This document shows positions 1 to 56,413 of a stretch of DNA of 64,000 nt, piece by piece; the stretch's first letter is position 1, and every line of letters begins with the position of its first letter. The translations under genes and the position numbers were made by a program. The notes under the pieces are model-generated. The model saw nothing but the letters and a program-made list of their open reading frames with translations, did no database searches and was not told the origin of the DNA. This DNA is from Candidatus Giovannonibacteria bacterium. Its GTDB lineage: Bacteria; Patescibacteriota; Minisyncoccia; UBA11713; 2-01-FULL-45-33. The DNA is taken from contig CP066687.1 in NCBI GenBank assembly GCA_016432405.1, forward strand, positions 347,040 to 411,039, given 5' to 3'.

Positions 1-1755
1 GAACTTAGGCAGAAGTTTTTGGATTTTTTTTCCGCACGCGGGCACAAAATCGTGCTTTCTTCTTCGCTGATTCCCGACGACCCGTCGGTGCTTTTGACCA
101 CCGCCGGCATGCAGCAGTTTAAGCCCTATTTTTTGGGTAAAGCTGATCCGCTCAAAGATTTTGGAACACGACGCACGGCATCAATTCAAAAATCGTTTCG
201 CACTTCGGATATTGACGAAGTTGGAGATGAAAGCCATCTTACTTTTTTTGAAATGCTTGGACATTTTTCGTTTGGAGATTATTTTAAAAAAGAAACCATA
301 GAATGGACATACAAATTTCTTACCGAAATTCTCAAAATTCCCAAAGAGCATATATCGGTAACTGTTTTTGCTGGAGATAATAAAATCCCTTTTGATAAAG
401 AATCGTACGATGCCTGGTCTAAATTTTTACAGGCAGAAAAAATTAAAAAAGGCCCGCGCGCAGACAATGTTTGGGGACCGGCGGGTCCGGAGGGACCTTG
501 CGGAGCCGCCAATGAAGTTTATGTTGATGATTTAGAAGTGGCCACGCTGGTTTTTATGGAATATTACTGCGCCAAAAATGGAAGTTTAACTCTGCTTCCG
601 CAAAAAGGAGTTGATGTCGGCTGGGGATTTGAACGGTTGGCTATGATAGTTCAGGACAAAAAAAACATTTTTGAAACGGATTTGTTTGAGCCGCTTTTTG
701 AGCTTTTACCAGACAATGTTTCGGAAAAGCATAAAAGAATAATAGTTGACCATATCCGCGGGACAGCGTTTTTATTGGCTGACGGAGTGCGGCCATCAAA
801 CAAAGAGGCGGGGTATATTTTGCGGCGGCTTTTGCGGAGGGTTTTTGTTTACGAATATCAAGCTAAATTATCAAAGCACGTTTTAGACGGAATTTTACAT
901 GACATTATTCACGAATACGGCGAGTTTTATTCGGAGCTTTTGAAAAACGCCGAAAGTATTCACGAAGAATTTAAAAAAGAGCGTGACGAATTTTCAAAGA
1001 CCTTATCGCGCGGGATTAAAGAAGTATATAAATTTGATAAAATCGATGCCCCCACGGCATTTAATCTTTACCAGTCCCTTGGTGTTTCTTTCGAAATCAT
1101 AAAAGACGTTGCCGGAGATAAGGCAAAAAATCTTACTCGAGAAGAATTTGATAAAGAATTTGCCAAACATCAGGAAATCTCGCGGGCGGGGCGGGAGAAA
1201 AAATTCGGAGGGCATGGGCTTTTGCTGGATACCGGGGAGCTTAAAGCCAAAGACGGAGAGGAGCTGAAAAAAGTTACGCGATTGCACACAGCGACGCATC
1301 TTCTACAGGCGGCTTTGAGAAAAGTTTTGGGAGAGAGCGTAAAGCAGGCTGGCAGTGACATCACCGCGGAGCGGACAAGATTTGATTTTGCGTTTGACAG
1401 AAAACTTACTGACGAAGAAATCAAAAAAGTTGAGGATTCGGTAAATTTGGCGGTTAATAAAAAATATCAGGTTGATATGAAAGAAATGGTTTTGGAGGAC
1501 GCTTTAAAATTGGGCGCTCTTAGTGTTTTTTCCGCCAAAGGCGGATCCGCCTTTGGCGGAAAGGAAAAATACCCAGAGAAAGTAAAAGTTTATTCGGTCG
1601 GCGATTTTAGGGCAGACCCGCCGGAGATCTTCTCTAGGGAGCTTTGCGGCGGCCCGCACGTAAAAAATACTTCCGAAATCGGCCGGTTCAAAATTTTAAA
1701 ACAGGAAGCAGTCGGCTCCGGCACCCGCCGTATCCGAGCAGTTGTTATACTATAA
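1..1755 (+). CDS. alaS: Alanyl-tRNA synthetase, compact form (5' end outside window)
   Basis: The reading frame is open from base 1. The N-terminal class II catalytic core (…TTAGMQQFKPYFLG…) is followed by the editing-domain HxxxH (HTATHLLQAAL) and CGGPHV motifs. Confidence 0.9.
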   Translation, partial: ELRQKFLDFFSARGHKIVLSSSLIPDDPSVLLTTAGMQQFKPYFLGKADPLKDFGTRRTASIQKSFRTSDIDEVGDESHLTFFEMLGHFSFGDYFKKETIEWTYKFLTEILKIPKEHISVTVFAGDNKIPFDKESYDAWSKFLQAEKIKKGPRADNVWGPAGPEGPCGAANEVYVDDLEVATLVFMEYYCAKNGSLTLLPQKGVDVGWGFERLAMIVQDKKNIFETDLFEPLFELLPDNVSEKHKRIIVDHIRGTAFLLADGVRPSNKEAGYILRRLLRRVFVYEYQAKLSKHVLDGILHDIIHEYGEFYSELLKNAESIHEEFKKERDEFSKTLSRGIKEVYKFDKIDAPTAFNLYQSLGVSFEIIKDVAGDKAKNLTREEFDKEFAKHQEISRAGREKKFGGHGLLLDTGELKAKDGEELKKVTRLHTATHLLQAALRKVLGESVKQAGSDITAERTRFDFAFDRKLTDEEIKKVEDSVNLAVNKKYQVDMKEMVLEDALKLGALSVFSAKGGSAFGGKEKYPEKVKVYSVGDFRADPPEIFSRELCGGPHVKNTSEIGRFKILKQEAVGSGTRRIRAVVIL

Positions 1756-1790
1756 GTGCGACAACGCAACAATTGCAAACATAACATTTT

Positions 1791-1816
1791 GCTACGATCG
1801 GGAGAAAGTGTTATAT
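1791..1816. repeat. Left direct repeat flanking Cas2-like gene copy 1 (gctacgatcgggagaaagtgttatat); its partner is at 2363..2387
   Basis: Read directly: about 23 of 25 positions match the right copy (gctcgatcggaagaaagtgttatac). It contains the palindromic core ACGATCG and lies in the promoter region of the 1829 gene. Confidence 0.7.
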
Positions 1817-1828
1817 TAAGCATAATAC

Positions 1829-2350
1829 ATGTTTAAGAAAATAATTTTAAAAGGCGTACGTAAACCATCCGTGGCAGAATTGGTGCTTTTGGCGCTGAAA
1901 AGAACAGTAGATTGCCCATTTGAAATACTGATGGAATATAGCAGAATAAGAAATCAGCTTAGACCGGAATTTGTGAGAGTAGCTACAAATCGCTTAAAAA
2001 AACGGAATTTAATCCAAACGGAACGCAGAGGAAGGCAAATTCTTTTTACACTAACCGGAGAAGGTGAAAAGGAAGCAGAAAAAATTAGGTTAAAATTGGA
2101 AATGACTAAATCTAAACCTTGGGATGGAAAATGGCGTATTATTGTTTTTGATGTCCCAGAAAAGTTGCGTGGCAAACGAGATCTATTGCGGCGGGAATTA
2201 ATTAATTTCGGTTTTAAACAACTTCAAAAAAGCGTCTGGGCTTACCCACATTCTTTACCGCAAGAATTTACTGATTTATGGGAAGAGATTGGAATTCTTA
2301 GACATTGTATAATTTTTGAAACCAGTAAGATAGAAAATGCTAGAATTTAG
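1829..2350 (+). CDS. Winged-helix plus Cas2-like domain protein (PaaX-like), copy 1
   Basis: The C-terminal block WRIIVFDVPEKLRGKRDLLRRELINFGFKQLQKSVW follows the Cas2 pattern (hydrophobic-YDV…R…L…G-R-Q-SV). The N-terminal part looks like a wHTH. Paralogs are at 20388..20961 and 55826..56347. Confidence 0.55.
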   Translation: MFKKIILKGVRKPSVAELVLLALKRTVDCPFEILMEYSRIRNQLRPEFVRVATNRLKKRNLIQTERRGRQILFTLTGEGEKEAEKIRLKLEMTKSKPWDGKWRIIVFDVPEKLRGKRDLLRRELINFGFKQLQKSVWAYPHSLPQEFTDLWEEIGILRHCIIFETSKIENARI

Positions 2351-2362
2351 TATAACAATTCT

Positions 2363-2387
2363 GCTCGATCGGAAGAAAGTGTTATAC
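2363..2387. repeat. Right direct repeat flanking Cas2-like gene copy 1
   Basis: gctcgatcggaagaaagtgttatac sits immediately after the stop codon and upstream of the FtsA/PilM-like gene. Confidence 0.7.
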
Positions 2388-2488
2388 AGTTTAGATTACT
2401 TGCAAGGATATAAAATAAAAATAAAAAAAGCTCCATTTTGTTTTCAGCCCTCCTTTCTCTGCTCGCCATCATAGCAATTGCTTAAAAT

Positions 2489-3685
2489 TTGTCCATAGCG
2501 TGCTATAATATTCTCATGCTTTCATGGATTTTTGGGCACAAAAAAAAGACGACGCACATCTTGGCGATTGACTTGGGAACAGCATCAATTTCCGCCGCGG
2601 TCGTCGTGCGCCATGAAAAAGCCGGACCGAACGCCCCGGCCGGGCTCTGCGAGATTAAAAAAGTTTTGAGGCATCCCTTAAACCTTTTGGGCTACCAGCT
2701 TGCCGCGGACGCCGGCAAGCTCCCTTATATTTTAAAAGACGGCTTCATGAAAGTTTTTAAAGACGCTTATGCCGCCTCCCGCCACGCAGACGTTATTTTA
2801 ATCGCGCTTTCCGAGCCGTTTTTTTTGGATAAGAAAACGCAAAGAGAAGAGGCGCGCCCTAACCCGTCTAAGCCGATCAGTCGAGCCGAGATTGACACCA
2901 TCGGAAAATTTTTAAGCGAAGACGTTTTGGTGGCAAACAGGCGGCTCGCGCCGGTCGGGCGGAATATTCTTGCCATGCGAGTGAACGGATACGACATCGT
3001 CGACGCAATCGGGTATAAAGGCAAAACGTTGGGGGCCGAGGCCGTGTTTACTTTAGTGAGCGCGACTTTGAAAGATTACGTAGATGAAGCGAAAGAAAAA
3101 TTTTTCCCCCGGAGCGCGGTTTCTTTTTCTTCCGATACCTGGGTTCTATGGAAGCTGCTAAAATCCACGGAGAATTTGTCCGGTCCGGTTTTGGTTGTGG
3201 ACATCGGCGGAGAAGTGACCGGAGTGTTTGGAGCCGGCAAAAACACGATTGAGCACATGGGCGCCGCCGCTTTCGGCATAAGGACTCTCGCCAGGCGCAT
3301 CGGGGCGGCGCTAAAAATTGGGCCAGAGGAGGTTGAGCCGATTTTGCGCAAGTATACTGCCGGCGCGCTGGATGAGCGTTTGAAAATGAAGGTGGACAGG
3401 GTTTTATCTGCGGCGCTTTTTGATTGGTGGGCAAGCATTAAAAATTTCGCGAGCGCGCCGGCGGCGTTTAAAAAAATATTGCTTTCCGGAGGCGGGGCTG
3501 ACTTCTCCGTTTTCTCCGATTTTCTGAAAGATTGCCTGAAAAAGGATTATGGCGCGGATGTGTCTGTGGAGCTCTTGCGCGCGGAGGCGTTCAATGATTT
3601 TTTGGACCCGGCCGGCGCGCTCTCCGGCGGCGGCGACGTTATTTTAGCGGCTTTGAGCATTTTTGCTGATGCCAAGACAGACTAA
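2489..3685 (+). CDS. Actin-like ATPase (FtsA/PilM-like, ASKHA fold)
   Basis: Phosphate-1 motif ILAIDLGTASISAAVV and a second glycine-rich motif VVDIGGEVTGV. The ORF is 398 aa. Confidence 0.5.
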   Translation: MSIACYNILMLSWIFGHKKKTTHILAIDLGTASISAAVVVRHEKAGPNAPAGLCEIKKVLRHPLNLLGYQLAADAGKLPYILKDGFMKVFKDAYAASRHADVILIALSEPFFLDKKTQREEARPNPSKPISRAEIDTIGKFLSEDVLVANRRLAPVGRNILAMRVNGYDIVDAIGYKGKTLGAEAVFTLVSATLKDYVDEAKEKFFPRSAVSFSSDTWVLWKLLKSTENLSGPVLVVDIGGEVTGVFGAGKNTIEHMGAAAFGIRTLARRIGAALKIGPEEVEPILRKYTAGALDERLKMKVDRVLSAALFDWWASIKNFASAPAAFKKILLSGGGADFSVFSDFLKDCLKKDYGADVSVELLRAEAFNDFLDPAGALSGGGDVILAALSIFADAKTD

Positions 3686-4979
3686 AGAAAGTTTTATAGA
3701 CATTCTCCCCTCAAGCGGCAAGCGCGTGATTTCGGATGTTGTGATTGCGCCAAGAAAAGAAATTACTTCTCAGTTTTTCAAAGAGCCACCGGCGGCGATC
3801 AAGCCCCCGAAGCGCTATTTGAGGACGGGACGCAGGGGCAGGTCCGTTTTTACGATTTTGGCGCTGCTTGCGCTGGCTGCCGTCTTGAGCGCGGTTTTCG
3901 GGAAAGTTGAAGTGACGGTAACCCCGAAAGCGTTGTCTGTCCAAATGGACAAAACTTTGCCGTTGAGCAAATCCCGGGACGGCTTGCCTGACGGCAGCGC
4001 GGGCAATTTTCTGATTTTCAGGACTCTCACGCTGCCGCATAAGGAGAGCGGTTCATTTAACGCCACGGAAGAGAAATTCCAGGACCGGAAAGCGCAGGGT
4101 ATAGTCGCCCTTTTTAACAAATCTAAGGCGCCCCAGATTCTTATCGCTTCCACGCGCCTTGAGGCGCCGGACGGCAGAATTTATCGGATTCCAAAAACTA
4201 TAGTCGTGCCCGGTGCCAAGACACAGGGCGGGCAGGCGGTGCCCGGTTCGCTGGATGTGACGGTAATTGCGGACAAGGCGGGCGCGGAATACAATATCGG
4301 GCTCTCGGATTTTACTTTGCCCGGTTTTAAAGATTCTCCCAAATACGAACTCGTCTTTGCAAGGTCCAAAGCCGAAATATCCGGCGGAGCAAGCGGAAAA
4401 CAAATTGTGGTGGGCAAATCGGACACGGATTCCGCTCTGACGGCACTTATGCTGCGAGTGCGCGAGGCCGCGCCTAAACTTATTTCCGGAAAAATACCAA
4501 AGGAAGAATTTTTAATTGCGGAGTCGGTTGAATATGCAGCCGCCAAAGAGGGTTCGGACCCCGCCCCGGGTTCGCCGGCGGAAAAATTTGATTTCAGCGC
4601 GGAAGGAGAAATCAGGGGGGCAAGCGTTGAAAGGCGGGCTTTAGAGGAGGCGCTTTTGAAGAATTTGCCCGAACTTGCGGCGCTCGAGGGAGCTCCGGTG
4701 CGCGTAAAAAATCTGGACAAACTGCCGATGAAATTAATCGGCTATAAATTTGAAGCGCGCAGTTTTACGCTGGCCGTCCGCGGCACGGCGGAGATTGAGG
4801 CGGTTGTGGACACCCAGACGCTAAAAAGCGCGATTTTGGAGCATGGCGTCAGGGGCGCGATTCTGCGGTTTTCCGCTTTGCCATCAATATCCGGAGTGGA
4901 GGCGCGTTTTAAGCCCTTTTGGTGGCGCAAGACCCCCTCCGACCCCAGCCGCATTGACATTATTTTACAAGGGAGCTAA
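3663..4979 (+). CDS. Membrane-anchored hypothetical protein with a single TM helix after a ~65-aa cytoplasmic N-terminus
   Basis: ORF with TM segment VFTILALLALAAVLSAVFG. It is translationally coupled to the FtsA/PilM-like gene, and could be a PilN/PilO-type partner. Confidence 0.4.
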   Translation: MLMPRQTKESFIDILPSSGKRVISDVVIAPRKEITSQFFKEPPAAIKPPKRYLRTGRRGRSVFTILALLALAAVLSAVFGKVEVTVTPKALSVQMDKTLPLSKSRDGLPDGSAGNFLIFRTLTLPHKESGSFNATEEKFQDRKAQGIVALFNKSKAPQILIASTRLEAPDGRIYRIPKTIVVPGAKTQGGQAVPGSLDVTVIADKAGAEYNIGLSDFTLPGFKDSPKYELVFARSKAEISGGASGKQIVVGKSDTDSALTALMLRVREAAPKLISGKIPKEEFLIAESVEYAAAKEGSDPAPGSPAEKFDFSAEGEIRGASVERRALEEALLKNLPELAALEGAPVRVKNLDKLPMKLIGYKFEARSFTLAVRGTAEIEAVVDTQTLKSAILEHGVRGAILRFSALPSISGVEARFKPFWWRKTPSDPSRIDIILQGS

Positions 4980-4994
4980 GATAGGGACTATTCG

Positions 4995-5222
4995 TTGTTA
5001 ATGCCAGCTTCGCCAAAAGACAAACTTATTAAAGAAGGGCAGGTTATTGAAGCGTTGCCTTCGGCGACGTTCCGTATTTTATTGGGAGACGGCAAGGAAG
5101 TCATTGGGCACCTGTCGGGCAAGATGCGCGTCCATTACATCAAAGTGCTGGTCGGCGACCGCGTTTTGGTTGAATTCAGTCCTTACGACGAATCCAGGGG
5201 ACGAATTGTTAAAAGGTTATAA
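4995..5222 (+). CDS. infA: Translation initiation factor IF-1
   Basis: S1-like fold sequence GQVIEALP…[40 protein letters not shown]. Confidence 0.85.
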
Positions 5223-8097: not shown

Positions 8098-8467
8098 TAT
8101 GACGAAAGAAATTATAATTGACGCGAAAAACAAAAAGCTCGGGAGGATTGCCTCGGAGGTTGCCAAGGCGCTAAGAGGCAAAACAGACGCCGGTTTTTTG
8201 CCGCACACGGTTGTTTTGCCCAGGGTCATTGTGAAAAACGCCGGCAGCATCGCTTTTTCGGAAAAGAAACTCAAGGATAAAGAGTTTTGGACGTACTCCG
8301 GCTACCCTGGCGGCAGAAAAGTAAAAAGTGCCTGGGAAGTCGCTGAAAAATCCACTGGCTGGAGGAGCGATATTTTGCGCCACGCCGTCTCGGGGATGCT
8401 CCACAAAAACCGGCTTAAAAAATTAATGATTAAAAATTTGATAATTTATAATGGAGAAGACAAATAA
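8098..8467 (+). CDS. rplM: 50S ribosomal protein L13
   Basis: MTKEIIIDAKNKKLGRIASEVAKALRGK… The ATG at 8098 is preferred over the TTG at 8087 given in the ORF track. Confidence 0.85.
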
Positions 8468-8864
8468 AAACGGATACTTTGAAGCGGTTGGACGCCGGAA
8501 AACTTCGGTTGCCCGCGTGCGCCTTTTTAAAGAGAAAAATGCTTTGCCGAATATTTCCATAAACGGCAAGGCGCATTCGCAATATTTTCCTACTTTGGAG
8601 CTCAAAAAAATAGCGGAAGAGGGGCTGGGCGCGGTGCGCGCGGAGGGTGTGTACAGGGTTTCGGCGAAAATTTCCGGCGGGGGAATCCATTCGCAGGCGG
8701 AAGCATTGCGCCACGGCATCTCCCGCGCGCTTTTAAAAGTTGACGCCGAAAACAGGAAACCCTTAAAGAGTTTAGGATACTTAAAGCGCGACCCGCGGAT
8801 GAAGGAACGCCGCAAATTCGGTCTCAAAAAAGCCCGCAAGGCCCCCCAGTGGGCGAAGAGGTAG
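8451..8864 (+). CDS. rpsI: 30S ribosomal protein S9
   Basis: YFEAVGRRKTSVARVRLF… with C-terminal …KKARKAPQWAKR. Confidence 0.9.
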   Translation: MEKTNKNGYFEAVGRRKTSVARVRLFKEKNALPNISINGKAHSQYFPTLELKKIAEEGLGAVRAEGVYRVSAKISGGGIHSQAEALRHGISRALLKVDAENRKPLKSLGYLKRDPRMKERRKFGLKKARKAPQWAKR

Positions 8865-8948
8865 AATGTTACTGAAAAACGATTTTGACCAACTTAATGC
8901 GATCGCGTTAGAATGACCAAAAAAAATTTTATAGGAAGAAAAATAAAA

Positions 8949-20286: not shown

Positions 20287-20340
20287 TTTTATTTCACAAT
20301 AAATAAATTCGCTACAATATTTAATTTACTAAGGCATTTT

Positions 20341-20363
20341 GACGACCGTTAAGTTGTCTTAGT
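20341..20363. repeat. Degenerate direct repeat downstream of Cas2-like copy 2 (gacgaccgttaagttgtcttagt); its partner is at 20979..20999
   Basis: About 17 of 22 positions match aacggtcgtcaagttgctttagt. Core ACGACCG versus ACGGTCG. Confidence 0.5.
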
Positions 20364-20387
20364 GGATTTAAATTGGTGGAAAAGACG

Positions 20388-20961
20388 ATTAAGTTAATTC
20401 TTTTACGGAACCGGCTTTGGATACTTCTAAAATATGAACAAAATTTAAGAGGTTTTTGTCTTTAAGATCAGATAAAAATTCTTGATTAATCTTATTTTTG
20501 CCAAACCACACGCTTTTCTGCAACATTCTAAAACCTAAAGCCAATAATGCCTCTCTTAGCTAAGCGCGTTGTTTTTTCAATCTTTCTGGTATGTCAAAAA
20601 TTATGATTTTGATCTTATTATCTGACGCCGGCGTGTAATTTATTTTATTGTCTTTAAACCATCGTAGCTTATCTAAGCCCGTAGCGATTATATTCCATAA
20701 AGAACCGCTAATACTTTTCTTTTTCACTATAAATCCTTGTCGTTTTAACCCATTAAGCAATGAATAAAAACACTGTGTTTCAGATGACGACGAATGCGCA
20801 AAAACTTGTCTAGGCATCTGGCCACCGAATAATCTGCTTCTAGCCCTTCTATAAGATTCTGGATAATTAAAAAATTCGTCTAGAATCTCGACTGTTAGCA
20901 ATGCGCCATTTCCCAGTGTTTTTAGAATTAATTCTGCCTTACTGCCTCTTTTCATAAGCAT
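20388..20961 (-). pseudogene. wHTH plus Cas2-like protein, copy 2, interrupted by an in-frame TAG
   Basis: The ORF track stops at …IIIFDIPERLKKQRA. Hand translation of the same frame after the TAG continues LREALLALGFRMLQKSVWFGKNKINQEFLSDLKDKNLLNFVHILEV…, which aligns with the C-terminus of copy 3. Confidence 0.6.
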
Positions 20962-20978
20962 AGTTTACTAAACTAACT

Positions 20979-20999
20979 AAACGGTCGTCAAGTTGCTTT
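20979..20999. repeat. Direct repeat upstream of Cas2-like copy 2
   Basis: aacggtcgtcaagttgcttta. See the partner repeat at 20341. Confidence 0.5.
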
Positions 21000-21091
21000 A
21001 GTATATAATGGGTTGGCCAATTTTTGTTTCAATGATAAGAAAAACGCAGTTTGGTTTGATATTTTTGTTTGCTTAGGATAAGATATCTAAA

Positions 21092-28732: not shown

Positions 28733-30029
28733 TAAGGTGCGCACGCGATTTGCTCCGTCTCCGACAGGGTTTTTGCACGTTGGGGGGCTTCGCACGGCGC
28801 TGTATAATTATCTTTTCGCGAAGCAAAATGGAGGCAAATTTATTTTACGCATAGAAGATACTGACCGCGCGCGCACTGTGGAAGGAGCAGAAAAAAATAT
28901 TATTGAGACATTGCGGATTTTCGGACTGGGTTTTGACGAGGGACCGATTCGGCAATCCGATAATTTGGCAAAATATAAAAAATATTCCAAGGAATTGGTA
29001 GCCAAAGGCGCGGCTTACGAAGACGACAGCGCCGTCAGATTTAAAATGCCGAAGGACGGCGTAACTGTCTTTGCCGACATTATTCATGGCGAAATTCAAA
29101 TAGACAATAAGACGCAGGAAGATTTTGTGATTTTAAAATCGGACGGTTTCCCGACTTACAATTTGGCCCATTTGGTTGACGACCACGATATGGCCATAAC
29201 GCATGTCATCAGGGGGGACGAATTTATCTCTTCAATGCCGAAATACATCGCGCTGCATAAAGCATTCGGCTGGGAGCTTCCTCAATATGCCCACCTGCCG
29301 CTTCTTTTGGACAAAAACCGCGCCAAGCTTTCCAAGAGGGAAGGGGAGGTGGCGGTTCATGATTTTTTGGACGACGGATATCTCAAAGAGGCCGTTTTAA
29401 ATTTCGTTGCGCTTTTGGGATGGCACTCGAAAACCGATCAGGAAATTTTTTCATTGGAAGAGTTAATAAAAGAATTTAAGCTTGAGCGCGTTCAAAGAGC
29501 CGGCGCGATTTTTGATACTACGAAACTAGATTGGATGAACGGAGAATATATACAAAAAAAACCCTTAAAAGATTTGGTGGAATTAAGTAGGGGTTTTTTC
29601 CAATTTTCAATTTCCAATTTCCAATTTTCAAATGAATATTTAAAGAAAATCATCGCGCTGGAACAACCTCGCCTTAAAAAACTCTCGGAGCTTCCGGAAA
29701 AAACCAACTATTTTTTTAAAGAACCGGAATATGATGCCACGCTGTTAAAATGGAAAAATATGGATAATAAAGAAATTAAAAAATCGCTGGAAACCTCAAA
29801 AGAAATAATTTCCAATTTCCAATTTCCAATTTCCAAACACGACATAGAAAAAATATTTTTAGAGCGCGCAAAAAAGTTTAAAGATAGGGGAGAACTCTTA
29901 TGGCCCCTCCGGGTTGCCCTAACTGGCAAAAAGGCCTCCCCGGGCCCGTTTGAGATAATGGAGATTTTAGGAAAAGAAAAAAGCATCGCCCGCGTTGCCT
30001 CGGCTTTAAATATGCTAAAACCCCGTTAG
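28725..30029 (+). CDS. gltX: Glutamyl-tRNA synthetase (compact)
   Basis: RFAPSPTGFLHVGGLRTALYNY (HIGH region) and KLSKR (KMSKS variant). Confidence 0.85.
   Translation: MNSKVRTRFAPSPTGFLHVGGLRTALYNYLFAKQNGGKFILRIEDTDRARTVEGAEKNIIETLRIFGLGFDEGPIRQSDNLAKYKKYSKELVAKGAAYEDDSAVRFKMPKDGVTVFADIIHGEIQIDNKTQEDFVILKSDGFPTYNLAHLVDDHDMAITHVIRGDEFISSMPKYIALHKAFGWELPQYAHLPLLLDKNRAKLSKREGEVAVHDFLDDGYLKEAVLNFVALLGWHSKTDQEIFSLEELIKEFKLERVQRAGAIFDTTKLDWMNGEYIQKKPLKDLVELSRGFFQFSISNFQFSNEYLKKIIALEQPRLKKLSELPEKTNYFFKEPEYDATLLKWKNMDNKEIKKSLETSKEIISNFQFPISKHDIEKIFLERAKKFKDRGELLWPLRVALTGKKASPGPFEIMEILGKEKSIARVASALNMLKPR
29600..29632. repeat. 7-bp-period microsatellite (ttccaat/tttcaat units), in-frame inside gltX
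   Basis: ccaattttcaatttccaatttccaattttcaaa encodes FQFSISNFQFS. A second array at 29808..29837 encodes ISNFQFPIS. Related arrays lie at 48144..48186, 54521..54542 and 57492..57537. Confidence 0.7.
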
Positions 30030-41247: not shown

Positions 41248-41961
41248 TCAAAGCCGGAGGAGCGCTGCGGCGAAATTTCCGGCCAAGAGGCCGAAAATAA
41301 GCGGGTCCAAAGAAGTGAAATAACTTAAAAGCACGGCGAAGGCGCCGACAAGCACTCCGTAGGCGGCGGCGCTTTTTCGGGACGAAAAAGCGGAGGTAAC
41401 CGGTTCAATGAGCATTACTGCCATAAAAAAAATCAATGTCCCGTCAAAAAGCTGTGTGGAAAAGAGCCCCAAAGCATAAACCGCCAAAAACGGCAAAACA
41501 ATGCGCCATTTGTTTATTTTCCATACAATGAATACCCCGACCAGAAGCAGGGTGATTAAACTCAATGTGTTTGTGCCTGCCAAAGACGGCGCCCACCATG
41601 AAATTGACGGTGTAAAAAAATAAAGAATCCCCAGTGAAAACGCGGCTGGGTTGAAAATATGCCGTCCCTTATTCCAGTGGAGCGCCTGCTTGCCAAAAAC
41701 CGCCAAAAACGCCAATGCGGCCGCATAAGCGGCGTTTGCCGCCGGAGCGGCGATTAATCCTAAGATAAGGCCCGAAATCAGAGATGAGGTCGGGAAATAC
41801 CAAATTTTACGCTTTAAAAAAGTCCAGAGAAGGTCAAAAGCCGCGTAAAACGCAACGATTAAAAACCCCCACAAAATGCGTTCAGGTTCGCCCAAAGCGA
41901 AAGCGGCGAGGACCAGCATCAGCGCCAAACAGCCGACCATAAAGGGTTTGATCGGCGGCAT
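41248..41961 (-). CDS. Polytopic membrane protein (6-7 TM helices)
   Basis: The HIFNPAAF motif is reminiscent of NqrB/RnfD-type proteins but the protein is much shorter. Function uncertain. Confidence 0.35.
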   Translation of the reverse strand: MPPIKPFMVGCLALMLVLAAFALGEPERILWGFLIVAFYAAFDLLWTFLKRKIWYFPTSSLISGLILGLIAAPAANAAYAAALAFLAVFGKQALHWNKGRHIFNPAAFSLGILYFFTPSISWWAPSLAGTNTLSLITLLLVGVFIVWKINKWRIVLPFLAVYALGLFSTQLFDGTLIFFMAVMLIEPVTSAFSSRKSAAAYGVLVGAFAVLLSYFTSLDPLIFGLLAGNFAAALLRL

Positions 41962-42501: not shown

Positions 42502-43373
42502 TAAAATAAAAGCACTTTTTCTTTTGTCCCGGGTCTCGAATTGAAGCTTCCGAGACCAACGCTTCACGTCAAAAATGACGCGATCGACACTTTAATTGTT
42601 GGACGCTCCGACGAAAAGTCGGAGTTGAGTACAAAAATTAAAATTGAAACTCCACGACCAGCTTCCGCTAGCCGTGCCTTGTTACGACTTACTCCCTGTC
42701 ATCCCGCCATCCTTATTCCCCGCTAAGCGGGACTTTTGGGTCGGCGGGACTTCCTTGAGTTGACGGGCGGTGAGTACAAGACTCGAGAACGTATTCACCG
42801 CAGTATAGCTGACCTGCGATTACTAGCGATTCCGTCTTCATGCGCTCGAGTTGCAGAGCGCAATCCGAACTGGGCCGGCCTTTGGTGAGATTAGCTCCGC
42901 CTCGCGGCTTCGCGACTCATTGTGGACGGCATTGTAGCACGTGTGTAGCCCAGGGCATCAAAGGGCCATGCTGACTTGGCGTCATCCCCGCCTTCCTCCC
43001 CGCGGTGCGGGGCAGTCTCTTGTGACACTTGTAACACAAAATAGGGGTTGCGTTCGTTGCCCCACTTAAGGGAACAGCTCAAGCCACGAACTGACGACAG
43101 CCATGCAGCACCTGTCCCGACGTCCTTGTGAGACGCACGCCTTTCGGCGGGCTTATCGTCGGGATTTCAAGCCCTGGTGAGGTTTTTCGTTTAACATCGA
43201 ATTGAACCACATGCTCCACCGCTTGTGCGAGTCCCCGTCTATTCCTTTGAGTTTTAAACTTGCGTTCGTACTTCCCAGGCGGATGACTTAACGCGTTAGC
43301 TTCGCCACTCGAAGGGTCGATACTTCCAATGGCTAGTCATCATCGTTTAGGGCGTGGACTACAAGGGTATCTA

Positions 43374-44003
43374 CAAATTTGTTACAACTCAATTTTACTA
43401 ATCGGTGCTAATTTTTGGAGTCAAGATTGGTGCTTGACAAATAAATTTTTATATGCTATGCTTGATATGGAGGTGATTTATGCTTGTATGGATTTGTGAG
43501 AAAACCGGGCCGCAAGGTTTAGCCCGACTTGTCTACAAAGAGTTCCTCGCGTGGATGCTCCTTGCGTCTTTGCTTGGTCAGGTTTATCTTTTGCTCCGGT
43601 AGAACCGAGGATCAAGCGATAAGAGGGAATGGAATTAAACGCTATTCCCTCTTTTTTATTTCCAAAAATTAGCACCGATTTTTTCTTGAGTGAGCAGAAT
43701 ATTTCTATCTGCTTCTGCATATCGCTATGCAGTTCGGACTATATCATGTCGCCTTTTCGGCGACCTCGGCGTATAGTCTCTACGGGGTCATGTCCGAAAC
43801 TAAGTGTCGGACAGCGGACTTCCCTCGGGATTGTCCTCCGACGCTTCGGCCGGAGGGGTTTCCCCGATATAGCTCCGACGAAAACCTCTCGGTTTTGTCG
43901 GAGTCCGACTTCACTATTAAAATAAATAGTGCGTCGGACCAAGTTTTTTATCCTCGGAATTTATTCCGAGGGGACTAAGCTGCCTTGTAAACAGCATTTG
44001 TTA
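43374..44003 (-). other. Intron-like insertion in the 16S gene at the h24 loop (E. coli position about 788/789)
   Basis: It interrupts the universally conserved GGAT|TAGATACCC block. The 3' two-thirds is dense in hairpins (for example ctccgacgaaaacc/ggttttgtcggag and cctcggaa/ttccgagg). No LAGLIDADG, GIY-YIG or HNH ORF is present. Confidence 0.6.
43407..43673 (+). mobile_element. Cassette with terminal inverted repeats (gctaatttttgg … ccaaaaattagc) carrying promoter, sORF and terminator, embedded in the 16S insertion and antisense to the rRNA
   Basis: TTGACA at 43434-43439, 17-nt spacer, TATGCT. SD ggaggtg and an ATG at 43480 open a 40-codon ORF running to TAG at 43602. Terminator agagggaat…attccctct plus T6. 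Paralog at 56433..56795. Confidence 0.5.
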
Positions 44004-44715
44004 ATCCTTTTTGATCCCCACGCTTTCGTGTTTCAGGGTCAGGAATGCCCCAGCAAGCTGCCTTCGCCTTTGGTGTTCCCCACGATATCAACGGATTTCA
44101 CCCCTACACCGTGAGTTCCGCTTGCCTCTGGCATCCTCCTAGTTTTGCCGTTTCCCGCCCATCTCTCCGGTTAAGCCGGAGTTTTTAAAACGGGACTAAC
44201 AAAACCCCCTACACACCCTTTACGCCCAGTAAATCCGGATAACGCTCGGGCTCCTCGTATTACCGCGGCTGCTGGCACGAGGTTAGCAAGCCCTTATTCT
44301 TAGGGTACAGTCATTTTTTTCCTCCCTTAAAAAAGCAGTTTACGCCCCGAAGGGCTTCCTCCTGCACGCGGCGTCGCTCGATCAGGCTTTCGCCCATTGT
44401 CGAATATTCTCGGCTGCTGCCACCCGTAGGTGTATGGACCGTTCTCAGTTCCATTGGTGGGGGCCAAGCTCTCACTCCCCCTAGCCGTCGTCGCCTTGGT
44501 GGGCCATTACCCCGCCAACAAGCTGATAGCCCGCAGGCCTCTCCCAGAGCCAATCTAAGTGTTTTAATCTCACGATACTATCGGGAATTAGCTCCGCTTT
44601 CGCGGAGTTATGCCCGTCTCTGGGGTGAGTTCCTACGTGTTACTACCCCGTCTGCCACTATCCCGCACCTTTTATTGCTAAAGGGTGCGGGACCGTATGA
44701 CTTGCATGCCTTATC

Positions 44716-44755
<40 letters not shown>

Positions 44756-45058
44756 AATAAGAAAAATTTCTTGCGAAATTTTTCTACTACGGGACAAAAG
44801 AAAAAATGCTCAAAATTTAACTGACTTAATTTTTTGGTGCAATTTTCTAAATTTTCAAGGTTCTCTTTTTGGGTCAAAACTCCTCAACAGGGCTCGGAGT
44901 AAATAAACCCGCGATAAGACCCCAAAGATCCTATCGCGGATTTACTATGCTAATTTTTCAAAATAGATTCAAAATAGATTAAAAGGTATCTGTGCCTCCG
45001 GCCATCTCAATATAAGTTAACCTATAATAATTCCATTATACTCGCCTAAAAAACGCCG

Positions 45059-47619: not shown

Positions 47620-48182
47620 TTTTACAGACCCGCCTGCCGGACGGGCAGGAAGAAAACAAAATATTGCGCAAAAGCGCCGATTCTGTCCAAAGCCAAAACC
47701 TGCCGGAAATTAAGGCGCTCATCAAAAAAATGGCCGCAGCGATGTTCGCGGAGCCCGATGGCATCGGCATTGCCGCTCCGCAAATCGGGGTTTCTCTCCG
47801 GATTTTTTTGGTTGCCAAGGAAGCGGCCGTAAAAAATGCCGAGGAATTGCATGAAAGAATCGGAGATAAAAACAAAAAGAGAAATACAGAGCATTTAGTT
47901 TTCATAAACCCCGTACTCAAAAAATTCTCATCTAAAAAAATAAGGGACGTTGAAGGATGCCTTTCTGTGCGCGGGGTTTACGGCGAGGTGCCGAGGGCGG
48001 AACAAATTACAATTGAGTATTGTGACGAATTCGGGAAAAAGCGTCAGCGCGGCGCCTCGGGGCTTTTTGCGCGGGTCTTACAGCACGAGCTGGATCATCT
48101 GGACGGCATTTTATTTATTGATAAAGCAAAGAACTTGAAACGAATTTCCAATTCTCAATTTCCAATTTCCAATGAAAATTGA
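47616..48182 (+). CDS. def: Peptide deformylase
   Basis: GIGIAAPQIG, EGCLS and QHELDHLDG motifs. The C-terminal tail is built from the 7-bp repeat. Confidence 0.85.
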   Translation: MILQTRLPDGQEENKILRKSADSVQSQNLPEIKALIKKMAAAMFAEPDGIGIAAPQIGVSLRIFLVAKEAAVKNAEELHERIGDKNKKRNTEHLVFINPVLKKFSSKKIRDVEGCLSVRGVYGEVPRAEQITIEYCDEFGKKRQRGASGLFARVLQHELDHLDGILFIDKAKNLKRISNSQFPISNEN

Positions 48183-48186
48183 AAAT
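48144..48186. repeat. 7-bp-period repeat array in inverted arrangement at the def/fmt junction
   Basis: tttccaattctcaatttccaatttccaatgaaaattgaaaatc encodes …ISNSQFPISNEN* and then MKIENLKLKI. Confidence 0.65.
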
Positions 48187-48921
48187 CTAAAATTAAAAAT
48201 TGTTTTTTTCGGCGCTTCGCCGTTTTCATACGTCTATCTTGACGCTCTTAAAAATTCCGGTTTTGAGATTGTCCCGCAAGCCGAGGATGCGGACCTCGGC
48301 GTTATTGCCTACTACGGCAAAATTATACCGAAAGCGGTTTTGGAGCTCCCTAAGTACGGGTTTTTAAATGCCCACCCCTCGCTCCTCCCGCGATGGCGGG
48401 GGGCGTCTCCCGTGCAATCCGCTATTCTGGCCGGGGATAAAATTACGGGTGTAACTATACACATAGCGACGGAGAAGCCGGATGCCGGGCCGATTTTAGC
48501 CCAGAAAAAAATACCAATAGAGCCAAAGGATACTTGTTTAAATTTAACAGGGAAACTCGCCCGGGAAGGCGCCGCGCTTTTAATTCCAACCATTGAAAAA
48601 CAGCTTGCCGGCGAAATCGCGCCAAAAAAACAGGACGATTCCAAAGCGACTTACACCAAGTTGCTTAAGAAAAAAGACGGGGAAATTGACTGGTCAAAGC
48701 CGGCCGACTATATAGAAAAAATGGTACGGGCTTACAGCCCATGGCCGGGGGCGTATACCAGAATGAAGAACGGCAGAATTTTAAAAATAAAAAAGGCAGA
48801 GGTTGTAAATGGAGTTTTAAAGCCCCTCATCGTTCAGCCGGAAGGCAAAAAAGAAATGCCCTGGGAGGCGTTTTTGCGCGGGCACAAAGACGCTATCGAA
48901 ATAACATCGCGGCCCCAATAG
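48172..48921 (+). CDS. fmt: Methionyl-tRNA formyltransferase
   Basis: HPSLLPRWRGASPVQSAIL formyltransferase signature. The def-fmt pair is conserved. Confidence 0.85.
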   Translation: MKIENLKLKIVFFGASPFSYVYLDALKNSGFEIVPQAEDADLGVIAYYGKIIPKAVLELPKYGFLNAHPSLLPRWRGASPVQSAILAGDKITGVTIHIATEKPDAGPILAQKKIPIEPKDTCLNLTGKLAREGAALLIPTIEKQLAGEIAPKKQDDSKATYTKLLKKKDGEIDWSKPADYIEKMVRAYSPWPGAYTRMKNGRILKIKKAEVVNGVLKPLIVQPEGKKEMPWEAFLRGHKDAIEITSRPQ

Positions 48922-53770: not shown

Positions 53771-54198
53771 TTAATTTTTCTGGACTCTAAAAGTTTTTCG
53801 TAATATCTGTCCGCCAGCGTGTCGTGAAATTCATCCAGAATATGCGGATTTTTCAACGCCTGCGCGACTTTCATGGCCGAAGCCATCCCTTTGGTGAGCG
53901 CGAGCTCCACCAGAGAATCAATTATTTCGGCGTGCTCTTTTTCCTGCAGCTCATACGCTTTTTGCTTAGCATCATCGTCCGCAAGCTGGCTTTGCTGAAG
54001 CGGTGTTGGCGATTTTGACCCGGCGGCGTCTTTTATGACTTCTCTAAAAATCTCTTTTTCGTGCTTTTGCTCACCGCTTCCGGCCAGCTCCCTTTTTTTG
54101 GCCTCCAGCCGCTCTTCAAGCAATTTTATTTCCTCGTGTAACCATGATTCAGGCATAATGAAATAATAACATGTTATAATAATTTTATGAAAAACCAC
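53767..54198 (-). CDS. Hypothetical coiled-coil protein, translationally coupled upstream of the VirD4-like gene
   Basis: ORF with ATGA overlap. Charged and helical. Confidence 0.3.
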   Translation of the reverse strand: MVFHKIIITCYYFIMPESWLHEEIKLLEERLEAKKRELAGSGEQKHEKEIFREVIKDAAGSKSPTPLQQSQLADDDAKQKAYELQEKEHAEIIDSLVELALTKGMASAMKVAQALKNPHILDEFHDTLADRYYEKLLESRKIK

Positions 54199-55782
54199 TG
54201 GGTTTTAGTGTTGTTGATATTGGCCTTGGCAGCGTTTTTCCGTTTTTGGGATTTAAAGAGCGCCCCGCCGGGGCTTTGGGCGGATGAGGCAGTAAATGGC
54301 GTCAACGCGCTGCGGGTTATTGAAACTAATCCGCCAGCTGGCGGATGGAAAGTTTTTTATCCGGAAAATTTCGGCCGCGAAGGCCTTTTTATAAACATTC
54401 AATCCGTTTTTGTAAAATCATTCGGCACCGAGCCGTGGGTATTGCGCTTGCCGTCGGCGATATTTGGAGTATTAACTATTTTAGGACTATATTTAATGAC
54501 TTTGGAATTGTTTAGGAATTCGAAATTAGAAATTGAAAATTCTCATGGCGAGTTCATTGCTTTGGCATCATCATTATTTCTCGCCACGAGCTTTTGGCAT
54601 ATTAATTTCTCGCGGATAGGATTCCGCGCGATTATGGCGCCGTTTTTTTTGGTGTGGAGTTTTTATTTTTTACTAAAAGGAACGTCGAGACGTCCGACGT
54701 CCTATGGACGTCGGACGTCCATAATTATTCTCGCCGGCTTCACTTTCGGCCTTGGCTTCCATTCATATATCGCTTATCGCATCGCGCCGGTAATTGCGCT
54801 GTTACCGCTGTGGAAATTTTACAAAAACTGGAAAAATCAGGAAGCCGGACTTCCACTTGGAAGTCCGGCTTCCAAGTACTGCGCTCCGTGCTTTATTGGA
54901 CTTTTTATTTTCGCCGCTTTCATCGCCTCGCTCCCCCTTCTTTGGTATTACGTCCAAAATCCGCAGGATTTTTTGGGGCGGACGGCGGCGATTTCAATTT
55001 TTGACGCTCCCAGCCCGCTCGGACAATTTTCAGAAAATCTTATAAAAACGCTGGGGATGTTCAATATCGCTGGCGATTTCAACTGGCGGCACAATCTCAC
55101 CGGCTCTCCGCAGCTTTGGTGGCCAGTGGGAATTTTATTTTTAATCGGCATATGGAAATCGCTTAAAAAATTACAGTGGCCATATAGTTTTGTGTTGCTG
55201 TGGTTTATAACGATGCTTTTGCCGGTTGCCGTTTCCAATGAATCTTTGCCGCACGCGCTCCGCGCGATTATTTTAATTCCGCCAGCGATGATTTTCGCCG
55301 CCTTGGGGCTAAATTGGCTTTGGGAAAATGTCAAGCCGCAGTTCAGGATTTTTATTTATATTTTTTTGGCCACCGCCGTGCTTCAGGCCTACAGCCAGTA
55401 TTTTTTACACTGGGCGCCGAATTTCAACGTTCATCAGGCATTTCAGACAGAAATTACCGAAAAGGCACGCTGGCTTAAGGCAGAGCCCAAAGACATAAAA
55501 AAATACGTCGTTACCGACGCGGTTGACCAAGCGGACACAACCGGCACGCCGATGTCCTTTCAGCCGATAGTTTTTATCACGGACACCTTTTATTCGCAGA
55601 AACAGGCGGAGAAAAATATTTATTATATTTCTTTAAAGAATCTTGATTACGCGGATTGTTCCCAAAAATGCGAGTTTCTGCCCGTGGAATACCGCCCAGC
55701 TATTTTTAAAACAATCAAACAAAAAATCCCGGGCTTGCGCTTAGACGCCTCTTCGGGATTTGTGGTATTAAAAAATTATTGA
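54187..55782 (+). CDS. GT39/ArnT-family glycosyltransferase (PMT_2-like)
   Basis: N-terminal WADEAVNGVNALRVIE and more than 10 TM helices. Paralog of 56820..58484. Confidence 0.65.
   Translation: MKNHWVLVLLILALAAFFRFWDLKSAPPGLWADEAVNGVNALRVIETNPPAGGWKVFYPENFGREGLFINIQSVFVKSFGTEPWVLRLPSAIFGVLTILGLYLMTLELFRNSKLEIENSHGEFIALASSLFLATSFWHINFSRIGFRAIMAPFFLVWSFYFLLKGTSRRPTSYGRRTSIIILAGFTFGLGFHSYIAYRIAPVIALLPLWKFYKNWKNQEAGLPLGSPASKYCAPCFIGLFIFAAFIASLPLLWYYVQNPQDFLGRTAAISIFDAPSPLGQFSENLIKTLGMFNIAGDFNWRHNLTGSPQLWWPVGILFLIGIWKSLKKLQWPYSFVLLWFITMLLPVAVSNESLPHALRAIILIPPAMIFAALGLNWLWENVKPQFRIFIYIFLATAVLQAYSQYFLHWAPNFNVHQAFQTEITEKARWLKAEPKDIKKYVVTDAVDQADTTGTPMSFQPIVFITDTFYSQKQAEKNIYYISLKNLDYADCSQKCEFLPVEYRPAIFKTIKQKIPGLRLDASSGFVVLKNY
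54689..54720. repeat. Palindromic element gacgtccgacgtcc-tat-ggacgtcggacgtc, in-frame (encodes RRPTSYGRRTS)
   Basis: Identical core to 58054..58085. Same family as 46866..46907. A 7-bp repeat lies upstream at 54521..54542. Confidence 0.75.
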
Positions 55783-55821
55783 ACTATACAAGTACTCACG
55801 ATCGTATAAATTTGTATAGAC
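55781..55821. repeat. Direct repeat downstream of Cas2-like copy 3 (actatacaagtactcacgatcgtataaatttgtatagac)
   Basis: Matches 56373..56413 (actatacacttttacacgatcgttggaatttgtatagac). The core is 22 of 25 identical. Confidence 0.7.
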
Positions 55822-55825
55822 GCAT

Positions 55826-56347
55826 CTATTTAGTATTTATAGTGCCCTTATTTTGTACCGTGAAAATATGAATGTTGGACATTAAGTTCATCTCTTCTAA
55901 ATTTTCTAAGAATTCCTGAGGTAACGGTCGCTCCCCCATCCATACACTTTTTTGTAAAGGCTTAAAATCGTAGGCAACTAGTTCTATTCTTAACCAATCG
56001 CGCTTTCTTCGCTCGCGCTCTGGAACGTCAAATATTACAATCCTTAAAATGCCGTCTTTTTTGGGCAAATCAAATGCGTTATCCGTTTTTGTGTTTTTGA
56101 TAAATTTTTTACCCAAATTCGTTATTCCCCACGTGTTATTTTTTCTTTCCACCAAGCCTTGTTTTTGCAATCTGGTCAAAATAACGGAAAAGGTTTGACG
56201 TTTAAATTGATAGTTTGAATCCAGCCCTAAAAGTTGCCTCCAGGCTCTTGCTTGCGGATACTTTTTTGGAAAAAAAGAATCCAGAGTCGCAAAACCTAAG
56301 TCGCCGATGGTTTTTAGGGTCAATTTAGTAAGATTTAGTTTTTTCAT
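55826..56347 (-). CDS. wHTH plus Cas2-like domain protein (PaaX-like), copy 3
   Basis: LRIVIFDVPERERRKRDWLRIELVAYDFKPLQKSVW aligns with copy 1. Confidence 0.55.
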   Translation of the reverse strand: MKKLNLTKLTLKTIGDLGFATLDSFFPKKYPQARAWRQLLGLDSNYQFKRQTFSVILTRLQKQGLVERKNNTWGITNLGKKFIKNTKTDNAFDLPKKDGILRIVIFDVPERERRKRDWLRIELVAYDFKPLQKSVWMGERPLPQEFLENLEEMNLMSNIHIFTVQNKGTINTK

Positions 56348-56372: not shown

Positions 56373-56413
56373 ATACTATACACTTTTACACGATCGTTGG
56401 AATTTGTATAGAC
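56373..56413. repeat. Direct repeat upstream of Cas2-like copy 3
   Basis: See 55781..55821. It is followed immediately by the TIR cassette. Confidence 0.7.

Follow-up and report, generated by a model that had tools for sequence, protein, structure and literature searches.

Our study concerns a 64-kb window of DNA (64,000 nucleotides of contig CP066687.1, the whole stretch that was analysed) from a Candidatus Giovannonibacteria bacterium, and a family of small PaaX-like genes that is represented there by three paralogues, each enclosed by two partly palindromic DNA sites (Table 1). The paralogues are about 28-38% identical to one another, and a six-frame search with a hidden Markov model (HMM) of the family found exactly these three genes and no fourth in the window. 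The initial annotation of this DNA had described three genes for proteins of about 170 amino acids (aa), each combining a winged helix-turn-helix (HTH) with a Cas2-like domain and each bracketed by imperfect direct repeats with a shared core. It had read them as mobile cassettes with target duplications or, alternatively, as genes carrying operators for their own product. The observation is confirmed here with corrections, and its interpretation is partly supported. All of our statements on the function of the family are inferred from sequence.

The three genes do encode a winged helix joined to a Cas2-like domain. All of them match PF20803 ('PaaX central Cas2-like domain') above its gathering cut-off of 24 bits, genes 1, 2 and 3 scoring 80.1, 52.2 and 56.7 bits (E-values 1.3e-22, 6.5e-14 and 2.6e-15), and their N-terminal halves show weak Pfam matches to PF07848, MarR and other winged-helix families. 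An AlphaFold model of the gene 1 product (pLDDT 81.5) has a winged helix at about residues 15-75, made up of three helices and a beta wing, followed by a linker helix at residues 77-93 and a Cas2-like beta-alpha-beta-beta-alpha-beta domain at residues 102-165. Its top Foldseek match in the PDB is 8a39, the PaaX of E. coli W (E 4e-8, 174 columns, both domains aligned), with the PaaX-like 3l09 and then 3kfw as runners-up, and a profile search also puts 8a39 first (E 1.6e-8). Matches to Cas2 itself are weak. PF09827 (Cas2) scores 21.9 and 22.2 bits, below its threshold of 23.8, PADLOC returned weak Cas2 and winged-helix matches only, and TIGR01573 (cas2) reaches 26.5 bits at locus 2, above its cut-off of 24.5, and 21.8 and 18.4 bits, below it, at the other two. 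Support for a Cas2 fold, on which the initial annotation had made its reading depend, comes from the predicted fold and PF20803 and, among the Cas2 profiles, from TIGR01573 at locus 2 only. A BLASTP comparison of gene 1 with a Streptococcus pyogenes Cas2 sequence gave no match and was not used.

In architecture the window proteins are of the PaaX type, shortened. They end directly after the Cas2-like domain (173 vs 316 aa), no match to PaaX_C (PF08223) was found in any of the three, and among the 62 relatives listed the precomputed annotation places that domain only in P0059 (257 aa). The fusion of HTH and Cas2-like domains, which had been thought undescribed, is the known PaaX architecture (PF20803). 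Conservation was assessed in a set of 149 diverse family members with a median pairwise identity of 31%. G79, W98, D108, Q133 and S135 are conserved in 100% of them, and D99 and R117 in 99%. D108 is the Asp of the FDVPE motif, the residue whose conservation the initial annotation had left to be checked, and it is present in 149/149 sequences. Cas2 carries a conserved Asp at the end of strand beta-1, the position equivalent to D108. An alignment to E. coli PaaX places gaps over most of the FDVPE segment, which includes D108, and leaves R117 and Q133 unmatched. A hydrophobic stretch in L095 and P0048-P0051 was considered as a candidate N-terminal membrane helix and dropped; its residues line up with the first helix of the winged helix.

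The expected length of about 170 aa holds for genes 1 and 3, whereas the frame of gene 2 is cut by a TAG that the initial annotation did not mention. This codon splits the frame into a 133-aa open reading frame (ORF) and a 55-codon remainder, with homology spanning the whole length and the conserved LQKSVW motif lying beyond the TAG. Because both halves still match the family HMM, gene 2 is probably a recent pseudogene, with both of its sites intact, or else the TAG is an assembly error. Split family genes numbered 0 among the 80 relatives described below.

Each copy of the flanking repeats in the window is itself a 36-38-bp imperfect palindrome, centred on CGA/TCG, CGA/CCG or CGG/TCG (the slash marks the dyad axis). 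All copies follow one plan, in which locus-specific outer arms at ±12-17 surround a common RCGR/YCGY centre. Their earlier description as imperfect direct repeats is borne out by a repeat search at locus 1 (1781-1815/2352-2386, 35 nt, 80%) and locus 3 (55783-55821/56375-56413, 39 nt, 79%), and at locus 2 by a 22-nt match (17/22). However, the search returned the locus 2 pair as an inverted repeat only (20324-20363/20967-21006, 40 nt, 80%), and since the copies are themselves palindromic, the 'direct' orientation is not an essential property. Nor does the proposed ACGAYCG core occur in every copy, the one after gene 1 reading CTCGATCGG, without the A. At locus 2 the two sites share the pattern ACTAAR-N8-ACGRYCGT-N8-YTTAGT.

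Table 1. Genes of the PaaX-like family and their flanking sites in the 64-kb window. Genes are ORFs; sites were located by palindrome scans.
Feature	Position	Strand	Dyad axis	Description
Gene 1	1829..2350	+		173-aa PaaX-like protein
Gene 2	20388..20961	-		Paralogue, about 29% identical to gene 1; in-frame TAG at 20560..20562
Gene 3	55826..56347	-		173-aa paralogue, 28-38% identical to gene 1 depending on alignment
Locus 1 upstream site	1779..1816		1797/1798	ATAACA-N8-CGATCG-N8-TGTTAT
Locus 1 downstream site	2350..2387		2368/2369	Arms and centre as upstream; begins at the last base of the stop codon
Locus 2 upstream site	20966..21003		20984/20985	ACTAAA-N8-ACGGTCGT-N8-TTTAGT
Locus 2 downstream site	20327..20364		20345/20346	ACTAAG-N8-ACGACCGT-N8-CTTAGT
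Locus 3 upstream site	56375..56412		56393/56394	CTATACA-N7-ACGATCGT-N7-TGTATAG
Locus 3 downstream site	55783..55820		55801/55802	Pattern CTATACA-N7-ACGATCGT-N7-TGTATAG

Only the full dyad is specific. The ACGRYCG core taken alone was rejected as a signal, with 28 matches in the window against 26.4 expected by chance, while each of the three full site types (arms plus centre, <=4 mismatches) has exactly two copies in the 64 kb. The window holds 66 CGRYCG centres, and in eight of them at least 10 of the 16 outer pairs are palindromic, a level reached by chance at 0.3% of positions; six of these eight are the flanking sites. Combined half-site similarity was 80, 82 and 85 at the three loci, compared with a mean of 62.8 and a 99th percentile of 79 in a conservative null made of mismatched family flanks.

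Away from the flanking sites, the window has a GC-rich palindrome at 41720 within a coding region. It also has a possible orphan site of the family type at 8884-8921, intergenic and just past the ORF 8451..8864, with a GCGATCGC centre and 10/16 outer pairs. No family gene lies nearby, and this site could be the scar of a lost cassette, akin to the solo sites of L098 and L088 that are described below. The strongest palindrome of the window, at 1526..1565 (18/20 pairs, GGATCC centre), is inside the alaS coding sequence, where it encodes SAKGGSAFGGKE, and a second strong palindrome is centred at 54856 inside the ORF 54187..55782.

The site-gene-site layout extends across the family, which comprises 7,177 clusters (50% identity) at E <= 1e-3 and 5,537 at E <= 1e-10. 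One genome per species was scanned, 496 relatives were confirmed and the best 80 of these 496 were analysed, their neighbouring genes being called with a crude ORF rule. The 80 loci come nearly all from metagenome-assembled genomes titled as Patescibacteria or Candidate Phyla Radiation (CPR); a few bear the title 'uncultured Gammaproteobacteria', possibly a wrong label. When the two flanks of a single gene were compared, their best 30-nt match averaged 23.9/30, against 18.6 (sd 1.2, max 23) for mismatched flanks, and lay above the 99th percentile of this null in 62/81 loci. A joint search found clear dyad pairs either side of the gene in about 68/83 loci, and the relatives thus hold the further repeat-gene-repeat units that the initial annotation had proposed to look for.

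When half-sites were pooled over the 68 loci, the pattern was an arm at -16..-12, an AT-rich and partly symmetric spacer, and then R-C-G-R at the dyad, with C at -3 in 99% and G at -2 in 87%. Palindromy over the same loci was 0.95-0.99 at ±2-3 and 0.85-0.92 at ±12-16, but 0.54-0.65 at ±5-8. The dyad lies a median of 37 nt before the start codon on the upstream side and a median of 37 nt after the stop codon on the downstream side, with a median dyad-to-dyad spacing of 639 bp. The downstream site is barely more palindromic than the upstream one (14.9 vs 14.4, p 0.08). Where the four half-sites of a locus split two and two, the split was of the palindrome type in 32 cases, of the direct type in 28 and of the inverted type in 14.

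These sites keep to the sides of the gene. Within 394 kb around family genes, 105 sites lie beside the gene and 1 lies elsewhere, against 0.7 expected by chance, and many solitary copies, as of a generic promoter element unrelated to the family, were not seen. For the three window site types no third copies, and hence no regulon, were found in the 64 kb; the reach of the third-copy search was about 10% of the source genome plus ±2.5 kb around relatives. All-against-all BLAST revealed no conserved, cassette-linked neighbour family in the 80 loci, where the largest cluster was one of ABC transporters with 9 members. As for carriage by phages, no relative was found in IMG/VR viral contigs, and PHROGs gave only weak HTH matches.

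The upstream site overlaps the promoter of the gene that it precedes. At locus 1 it contains a promoter-like element, composed of a -35 TTGCTA at 1789-1794, a 17-nt spacer and a TG-extended -10 TATATT at 1812-1817, which ends 11 nt before the ATG (1829), and at locus 2 a promoter-like TTGACG-18-TAAACT faces the gene. By a strict sigma-70 consensus, a gene-facing promoter overlaps the upstream site in 16/68 loci, compared with 6/68 for the downstream site and 5/68 for control positions. In several Daviesbacteria loci, L025, L039 and L044 among them, TTGACA forms part of the left arm of the site, with the start codon at +18. Just to the right of the centre, the promoter scan called a -10-like hexamer in L044 (TACAAT), and one could be read by eye in L017 and in L041. 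A protein bound at the upstream site must occlude the promoter, and from this overlap we infer autorepression as the straightforward consequence.

At locus 1 the downstream site is not promoter-like, and it lies about 90 bp before the FtsA-like gene's own conserved promoter (2474-2509). In the other two loci the next gene is convergent, so that the downstream site stands between the ends of gene 2 and a class II aminoacyl-tRNA synthetase gene at locus 2, and between those of gene 3 and a PMT_2 glycosyltransferase gene at locus 3. None of the window sites is followed by a T-tract, and no terminator was called there. It had been suggested that one site of each pair might regulate a neighbour. 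Because the FtsA-like gene has a separate promoter and the downstream neighbour is convergent in 23/76 loci, a role of the downstream site as the operator of a neighbouring gene is not supported.

Gain and loss of cassettes could be followed at the junction between alaS and the FtsA-like gene, which was collected from other Giovannonibacteria. This junction is filled by a cassette in the + orientation in the window, L008 and L009, by a different paralogue in the - orientation in L095 and L104, and by a third type, also in the - orientation, in L089. In L091 and L093 it is compact, about 20 bp long and without a site. L098 has a 219-bp gap with one window-type site and no gene, and L088, L096 and L097 have one site of the second type and no gene. 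By alignment, L098 matches the window on both flanks, with a single site between them, whereas L088 corresponds to L095 without the gene and one of the sites, its solo site being made of the left half of one copy and the right half of the other. Filled and empty alleles (L098 vs the window, L008 and L009; L088 vs L095 and L104) differ by the gene plus one site copy. Empty sites with a single repeat copy, another expectation of the initial annotation, were thus found for two cassette types. In L088 (3138..3380, - strand), and also in L096 and L097, an 80-aa ORF without a Pfam match fills part of the gap between alaS and the FtsA-like gene; it adjoins the solo site and a hairpin terminator common to L098 and L095.

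Genomes that are 80-84% identical in their FtsA-like proteins differ at this junction: four of the states, solo sites of both types included, are found among them, so turnover is fast. Any single filled and empty pair would fit gain or loss alike. The cassette that lies between fusA and tuf in L010 is surely a derived insertion. No clear case of cassette inversion in orthologous contexts was found when neighbour families were checked for a switch from the upstream side on the same strand to the downstream side on the opposite strand. Identity along the junction is mosaic. Between the window and L009 it is 50% for the N-terminal and 83% for the C-terminal part of alaS, 90% for the cassette protein, 59% for the FtsA-like protein and 56% for the next gene, and between L095 and L104 it is 78% for the C-terminal part of alaS, 98% for the cassette and 88% for the FtsA-like protein. 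In both pairs the cassette protein is better conserved than the housekeeping genes beside it. This mosaic points to exchange by recombination in the flanks. When window positions 1..5200 are compared with L009 and L008, one breakpoint falls within alaS and the other about 40 bp past the downstream site. L089 and L095 share the same junction and orientation, and their proteins are 59% identical. Since both of their sites have changed together with the protein, the downstream copy is kept in step with the protein and is no decaying scar.

Based on these observations, we propose, with a probability of roughly 0.55, that the family consists of autorepressed PaaX-like DNA-binding proteins, each with two cognate operators, and that gene and sites form a self-contained cassette that is lost by recombination between the repeats and exchanged by flank homology. 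The proposal builds on the domain architecture, the dyad sites, their pairing across the family, the overlap with the promoter and the gain and loss of whole cassettes. That the protein recognises its flanking sites is suggested by the co-variation of the two and by analogy with PaaX. By the same analogy, dimerisation through the Cas2-like domain would set the two winged helices about 28 bp apart, and the dimer would read the 36-38-bp dyad with its winged helices on the arms and its conserved core over the RCGR/YCGY two-fold axis. The upstream site coincides with the sigma-70-type promoter of the gene itself, from which the mRNA would have almost no leader or none, and binding there would lead to self-repression. 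The downstream site would be a second cognate operator, most likely in a cooperative role in which a dimer of dimers loops the DNA around the gene of about 600 bp; it may also, or instead, act as a roadblock that shields the gene from transcription in its neighbourhood. As the two sites form near-identical repeats, a recombination event that joins them would delete the gene and leave one site, as is seen in the comparison with relatives, and recombination in flanking housekeeping genes would swap whole cassettes between related genomes, as is seen in the mosaic identities. With no further target in evidence, the cassette may be kept as a selfish element, or as one that is useful under some conditions, and not as the regulator of a regulon. 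The operator that the initial annotation had offered as its second option agrees with this proposal, in that the arms of the dyad sites are widely spaced, as in the PaaX operator, and the promoter of the gene lies under the upstream copy.

Several observations weigh against autorepression from paired operators. Helical phasing of the distance between the sites is absent (Rayleigh p 0.18-0.77), and a regulator without a target besides itself is odd. The strict sigma-70 consensus is met by only 16 of the 68 upstream sites, and the downstream site is retained also in the 23 of 76 loci where a convergent gene follows. In L019, L046 and L085 a perfect 38-bp palindrome stands on either side of the gene, and the two differ at 10-12 mirrored positions, which simple selection for binding does not predict; a crossover at the dyad or quasipalindrome template switching would be expected to leave this pattern. 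Finally, as D108, R117 and Q133 are about 100% conserved yet unmatched in E. coli PaaX, their conservation suggests that the Cas2-like domain does more than dimerise.

The main alternative is that the cassette mobilises itself, with the winged-helix Cas2-like protein acting as a nuclease or recombinase. A dimer on the palindrome would hold its conserved acidic/basic centre over the invariant RCGR/YCGY dyad and cut or exchange strands at that point; a circle made of the gene and one site would enter or leave a solo site, and the two sites would be attL/attR-like ends. We consider this unlikely. Self-mobilisation would account for alleles, filled and empty, whose only difference is the gene and a single site, and for solo sites of two types that join the left half of one copy to the right half of the other, but deletion between 36-50-bp direct repeats and replacement by flank homology, of which the mosaics speak, would give the same alleles without an enzyme. 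The exchange of half-site sequence and the perfect but differing palindromes are the product expected of a dyad crossover, although quasipalindrome template switching also yields perfect palindromes. Mobility would suit the four junction states, two of them solo-site types, among close relatives; however, compact alaS-ftsA junctions free of any site exist as well, and because those of L091 and L093 carry none, a pre-existing cognate target would not be general. At least three cassette types in two orientations are found directly after alaS, yet the orientation at this junction is stable across cassettes that are only 59% identical, so inversion is rare. Insertion within the conserved fusA-tuf pair, the confinement of the sites to the gene's sides with no other target (105 vs 1 in 394 kb), and the compactness of the units, in which one site abuts the ATG and the stop codon is in or beside the other, speak for a mobile unit, but there are no near-identical copies elsewhere, multi-copy bursts or, in the 80 loci, tandem arrays, and the paralogues of any one genome share only some 28-38% identity. 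The cassettes neither contain nor adjoin a gene for a tyrosine or serine recombinase. The strictly conserved D108, R117, Q133 and S135 follow a Cas2-like pattern, and the aligned E. coli PaaX does not share the first three; against this, Cas2 nuclease activity is dispensable in CRISPR adaptation, and we know of no recombinase or nuclease activity in PaaX-type domains. More doubtful still is the fuller claim that the cassettes would be a new minimal mobile element, in which a Cas2-domain protein targeted by its winged helix cuts or recombines the CG-rich dyad and thereby inserts, excises or inverts its own gene.

A hairpin in single-stranded DNA or RNA, comparable to IS200/IS605 ends, REP elements, attC sites or stems that stabilise or terminate mRNA, is very improbable in place of a duplex operator. 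The perfect 38-bp palindromes of L019, L046 and L085, with mirrored and compensatory-looking differences between copies, resemble such stems, but most sites score just 13-15/19, and because palindromy is bipartite, only 0.54-0.65 at ±5-8, hairpin models fit poorly and protein contacts are favoured over a continuous stem. While the downstream copy is in the 3' untranslated region, ahead of separate terminators in L088 and L098, the window sites have neither T-tract nor called terminator, and the upstream copy is mostly 5' of the predicted transcription start; as it overlaps the promoter, it would mostly not be transcribed. Searches of profile libraries found no HUH or tyrosine transposase motif or match, nor any DDE or serine transposase domain, and the sites are not multi-copy like REP. 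The presence/absence polymorphism of a repeat-bounded gene could also suggest that the repeats are target-site duplications or terminal repeats of a transposase encoded elsewhere, with the protein as a passenger. Each paralogue, however, has its own arms and both copies change with the protein, which argues against a trans-acting transposase, since that would impose one common end sequence. Copy orientation is not fixed either (see the two-two splits above), a 36-50-bp duplication would be unusually long for a transposon and no transposase is a conserved neighbour. Of the mobile cassette first envisaged, then, the filled and empty alleles and the single-copy solo sites stand, and the target-site duplication falls: copies are direct, inverted or self-palindromic by locus, and by eye, without a systematic test, no short duplications were seen outside the locus-1 sites of the window. 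It is least credible of all that the units are the remnant of a degenerate CRISPR-like or Cas2-linked adaptation system, with the gene as a 'spacer' between two repeats. The beta-1 Asp is kept, locus 2 passes the TIGR01573 cut-off among otherwise weak Pfam and PADLOC matches to Cas2, and a partly palindromic repeat of 36-38 bp is in the CRISPR length range, but no CRISPR array was found in the 64-kb window, neither cas1 nor any other gene is a conserved neighbour in the 80 loci, there are always two copies and one gene, and the best match overall is PaaX and not Cas2. Both the duplication left by a foreign transposase and the CRISPR remnant are effectively excluded.

PaaX, which represses phenylacetate catabolism in E. 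coli and Pseudomonas and has the same winged helix and central Cas2-like domain (PF20803), is the best sequence and fold match of the CPR family. The E. coli PaaX operator is TGATTC(N27)GAATCA, and PaaX also represses its own promoter Px (reviewed in PMC9493321). Compared with these inverted 6-bp half-sites N27 apart, the arms of the CPR sites are 22-24 bp apart, and the position of the upstream site on the gene's own promoter would parallel the autorepression of Px. PaaX differs in having PaaX_C, the region that binds the inducer phenylacetyl-CoA, so the CPR proteins, which lack it, have no obvious effector. It also differs in its paa linkage; the neighbours in the window are alaS, FtsA-like, class II aminoacyl-tRNA synthetase, scpA and glycosyltransferase genes, with no paa genes nearby. 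Because the C-terminal effector domain and the paa context are absent and TIGR02277 (PaaX equivalog) scores only 61, 18 and 17.8 bits against a cut-off of 264.55, the CPR family is not a PaaX equivalog. The CPR sites are further set apart by their strictly conserved central RCGR/YCGY motif, and the CPR gene by being bracketed with two sites and having no others.

With Cas2 and VapD the CPR domain shares the ferredoxin-like beta-alpha-beta-beta-alpha-beta fold and a hydrophobic beta-1 that ends in the invariant Asp (FDVPE), and the weak HMM matches cover beta-1 and alpha-1. In contrast to them, it is fused to a winged helix and has no Cas1, array or toxin-antitoxin partner; since there is no Cas1 and no array, the protein is not functionally a Cas2. 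Regulator genes enclosed by their own operators, with repression through a DNA loop, are known from phage lambda cI (OL/OR) and from the auxiliary operators of lac and gal. The CPR units would resemble these in that the gene stands between two cognate operators, one of which coincides with the promoter, and their spacing of 0.5-0.9 kb would suit looping. They differ in that the second operator is always just past the stop codon, no other targets are known and the unit turns over as a cassette. Integron attC cassettes and Xer-dependent pdif modules are likewise single genes bounded by recombination-prone palindromic sites, with filled and empty alleles, but the CPR units have no integrase or Xer-type site architecture, their sites are cassette-specific and matched to the protein, and they form no arrays. 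IS200/IS605 and REP/RAYT elements are also units of about 0.6 kb with one small gene, imperfect palindromes and one palindrome type per gene lineage; unlike them, the CPR units have no HUH/Tyr motifs, are not repeated in the genome and carry bipartite, operator-like palindromes.

A 2026 survey of 6,536 complete genomes found PaaX rarely outside the context of phenylacetate-CoA ligase (PAL) and mentions neither Patescibacteria nor Cas2. Our search of 8 million full texts returned nothing that links PaaX-like proteins with Cas2, CPR or flanking palindromes. The part that seems to be undescribed is the family-wide site-gene-site arrangement in a very large CPR branch of the PaaX family.

Two further features of the window are recorded here. 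The 16S rRNA gene (42640..44761, - strand) is 2,122 nt long, compared with a 1,533-nt model, and so carries one or more insertions totalling about 590 nt; 16S rRNA insertions are common in CPR bacteria. Short heptamer repeats (TTTCCAA / AATTTCC) occur at 29597..29836 and at about 48150..48190.

In conclusion, CPR/Patescibacteria have small genomes, yet this family counts at least 5,500 clusters (50% identity, E <= 1e-10), and three of its members lie in one 64-kb window. Streamlined genomes could keep such units as selfish cassettes, for a Cas2/VapD-like role in addiction or defence, or as local organisers of the chromosome. If each member is autorepressed and its only sites are those that bracket it, the family would be a set of orthogonal protein-operator pairs on one scaffold. 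It would then amount to a natural experiment in the evolution of DNA-recognition specificity, and possibly to a parts list for synthetic biology. Should the Cas2-like domain work at the centre of the palindrome, Cas2-type domains would have a sequence-specific DNA activity outside CRISPR, and the ancestral role of Cas2 would become directly testable with a 173-aa protein and a 38-bp site. If the cassettes were indeed a new minimal mobile element, theirs would be the first Cas2-like domain to carry out a sequence-specific DNA transaction by itself, and such a free-living relative would be relevant to how Cas2 and palindromic repeats were joined in the origins of CRISPR.

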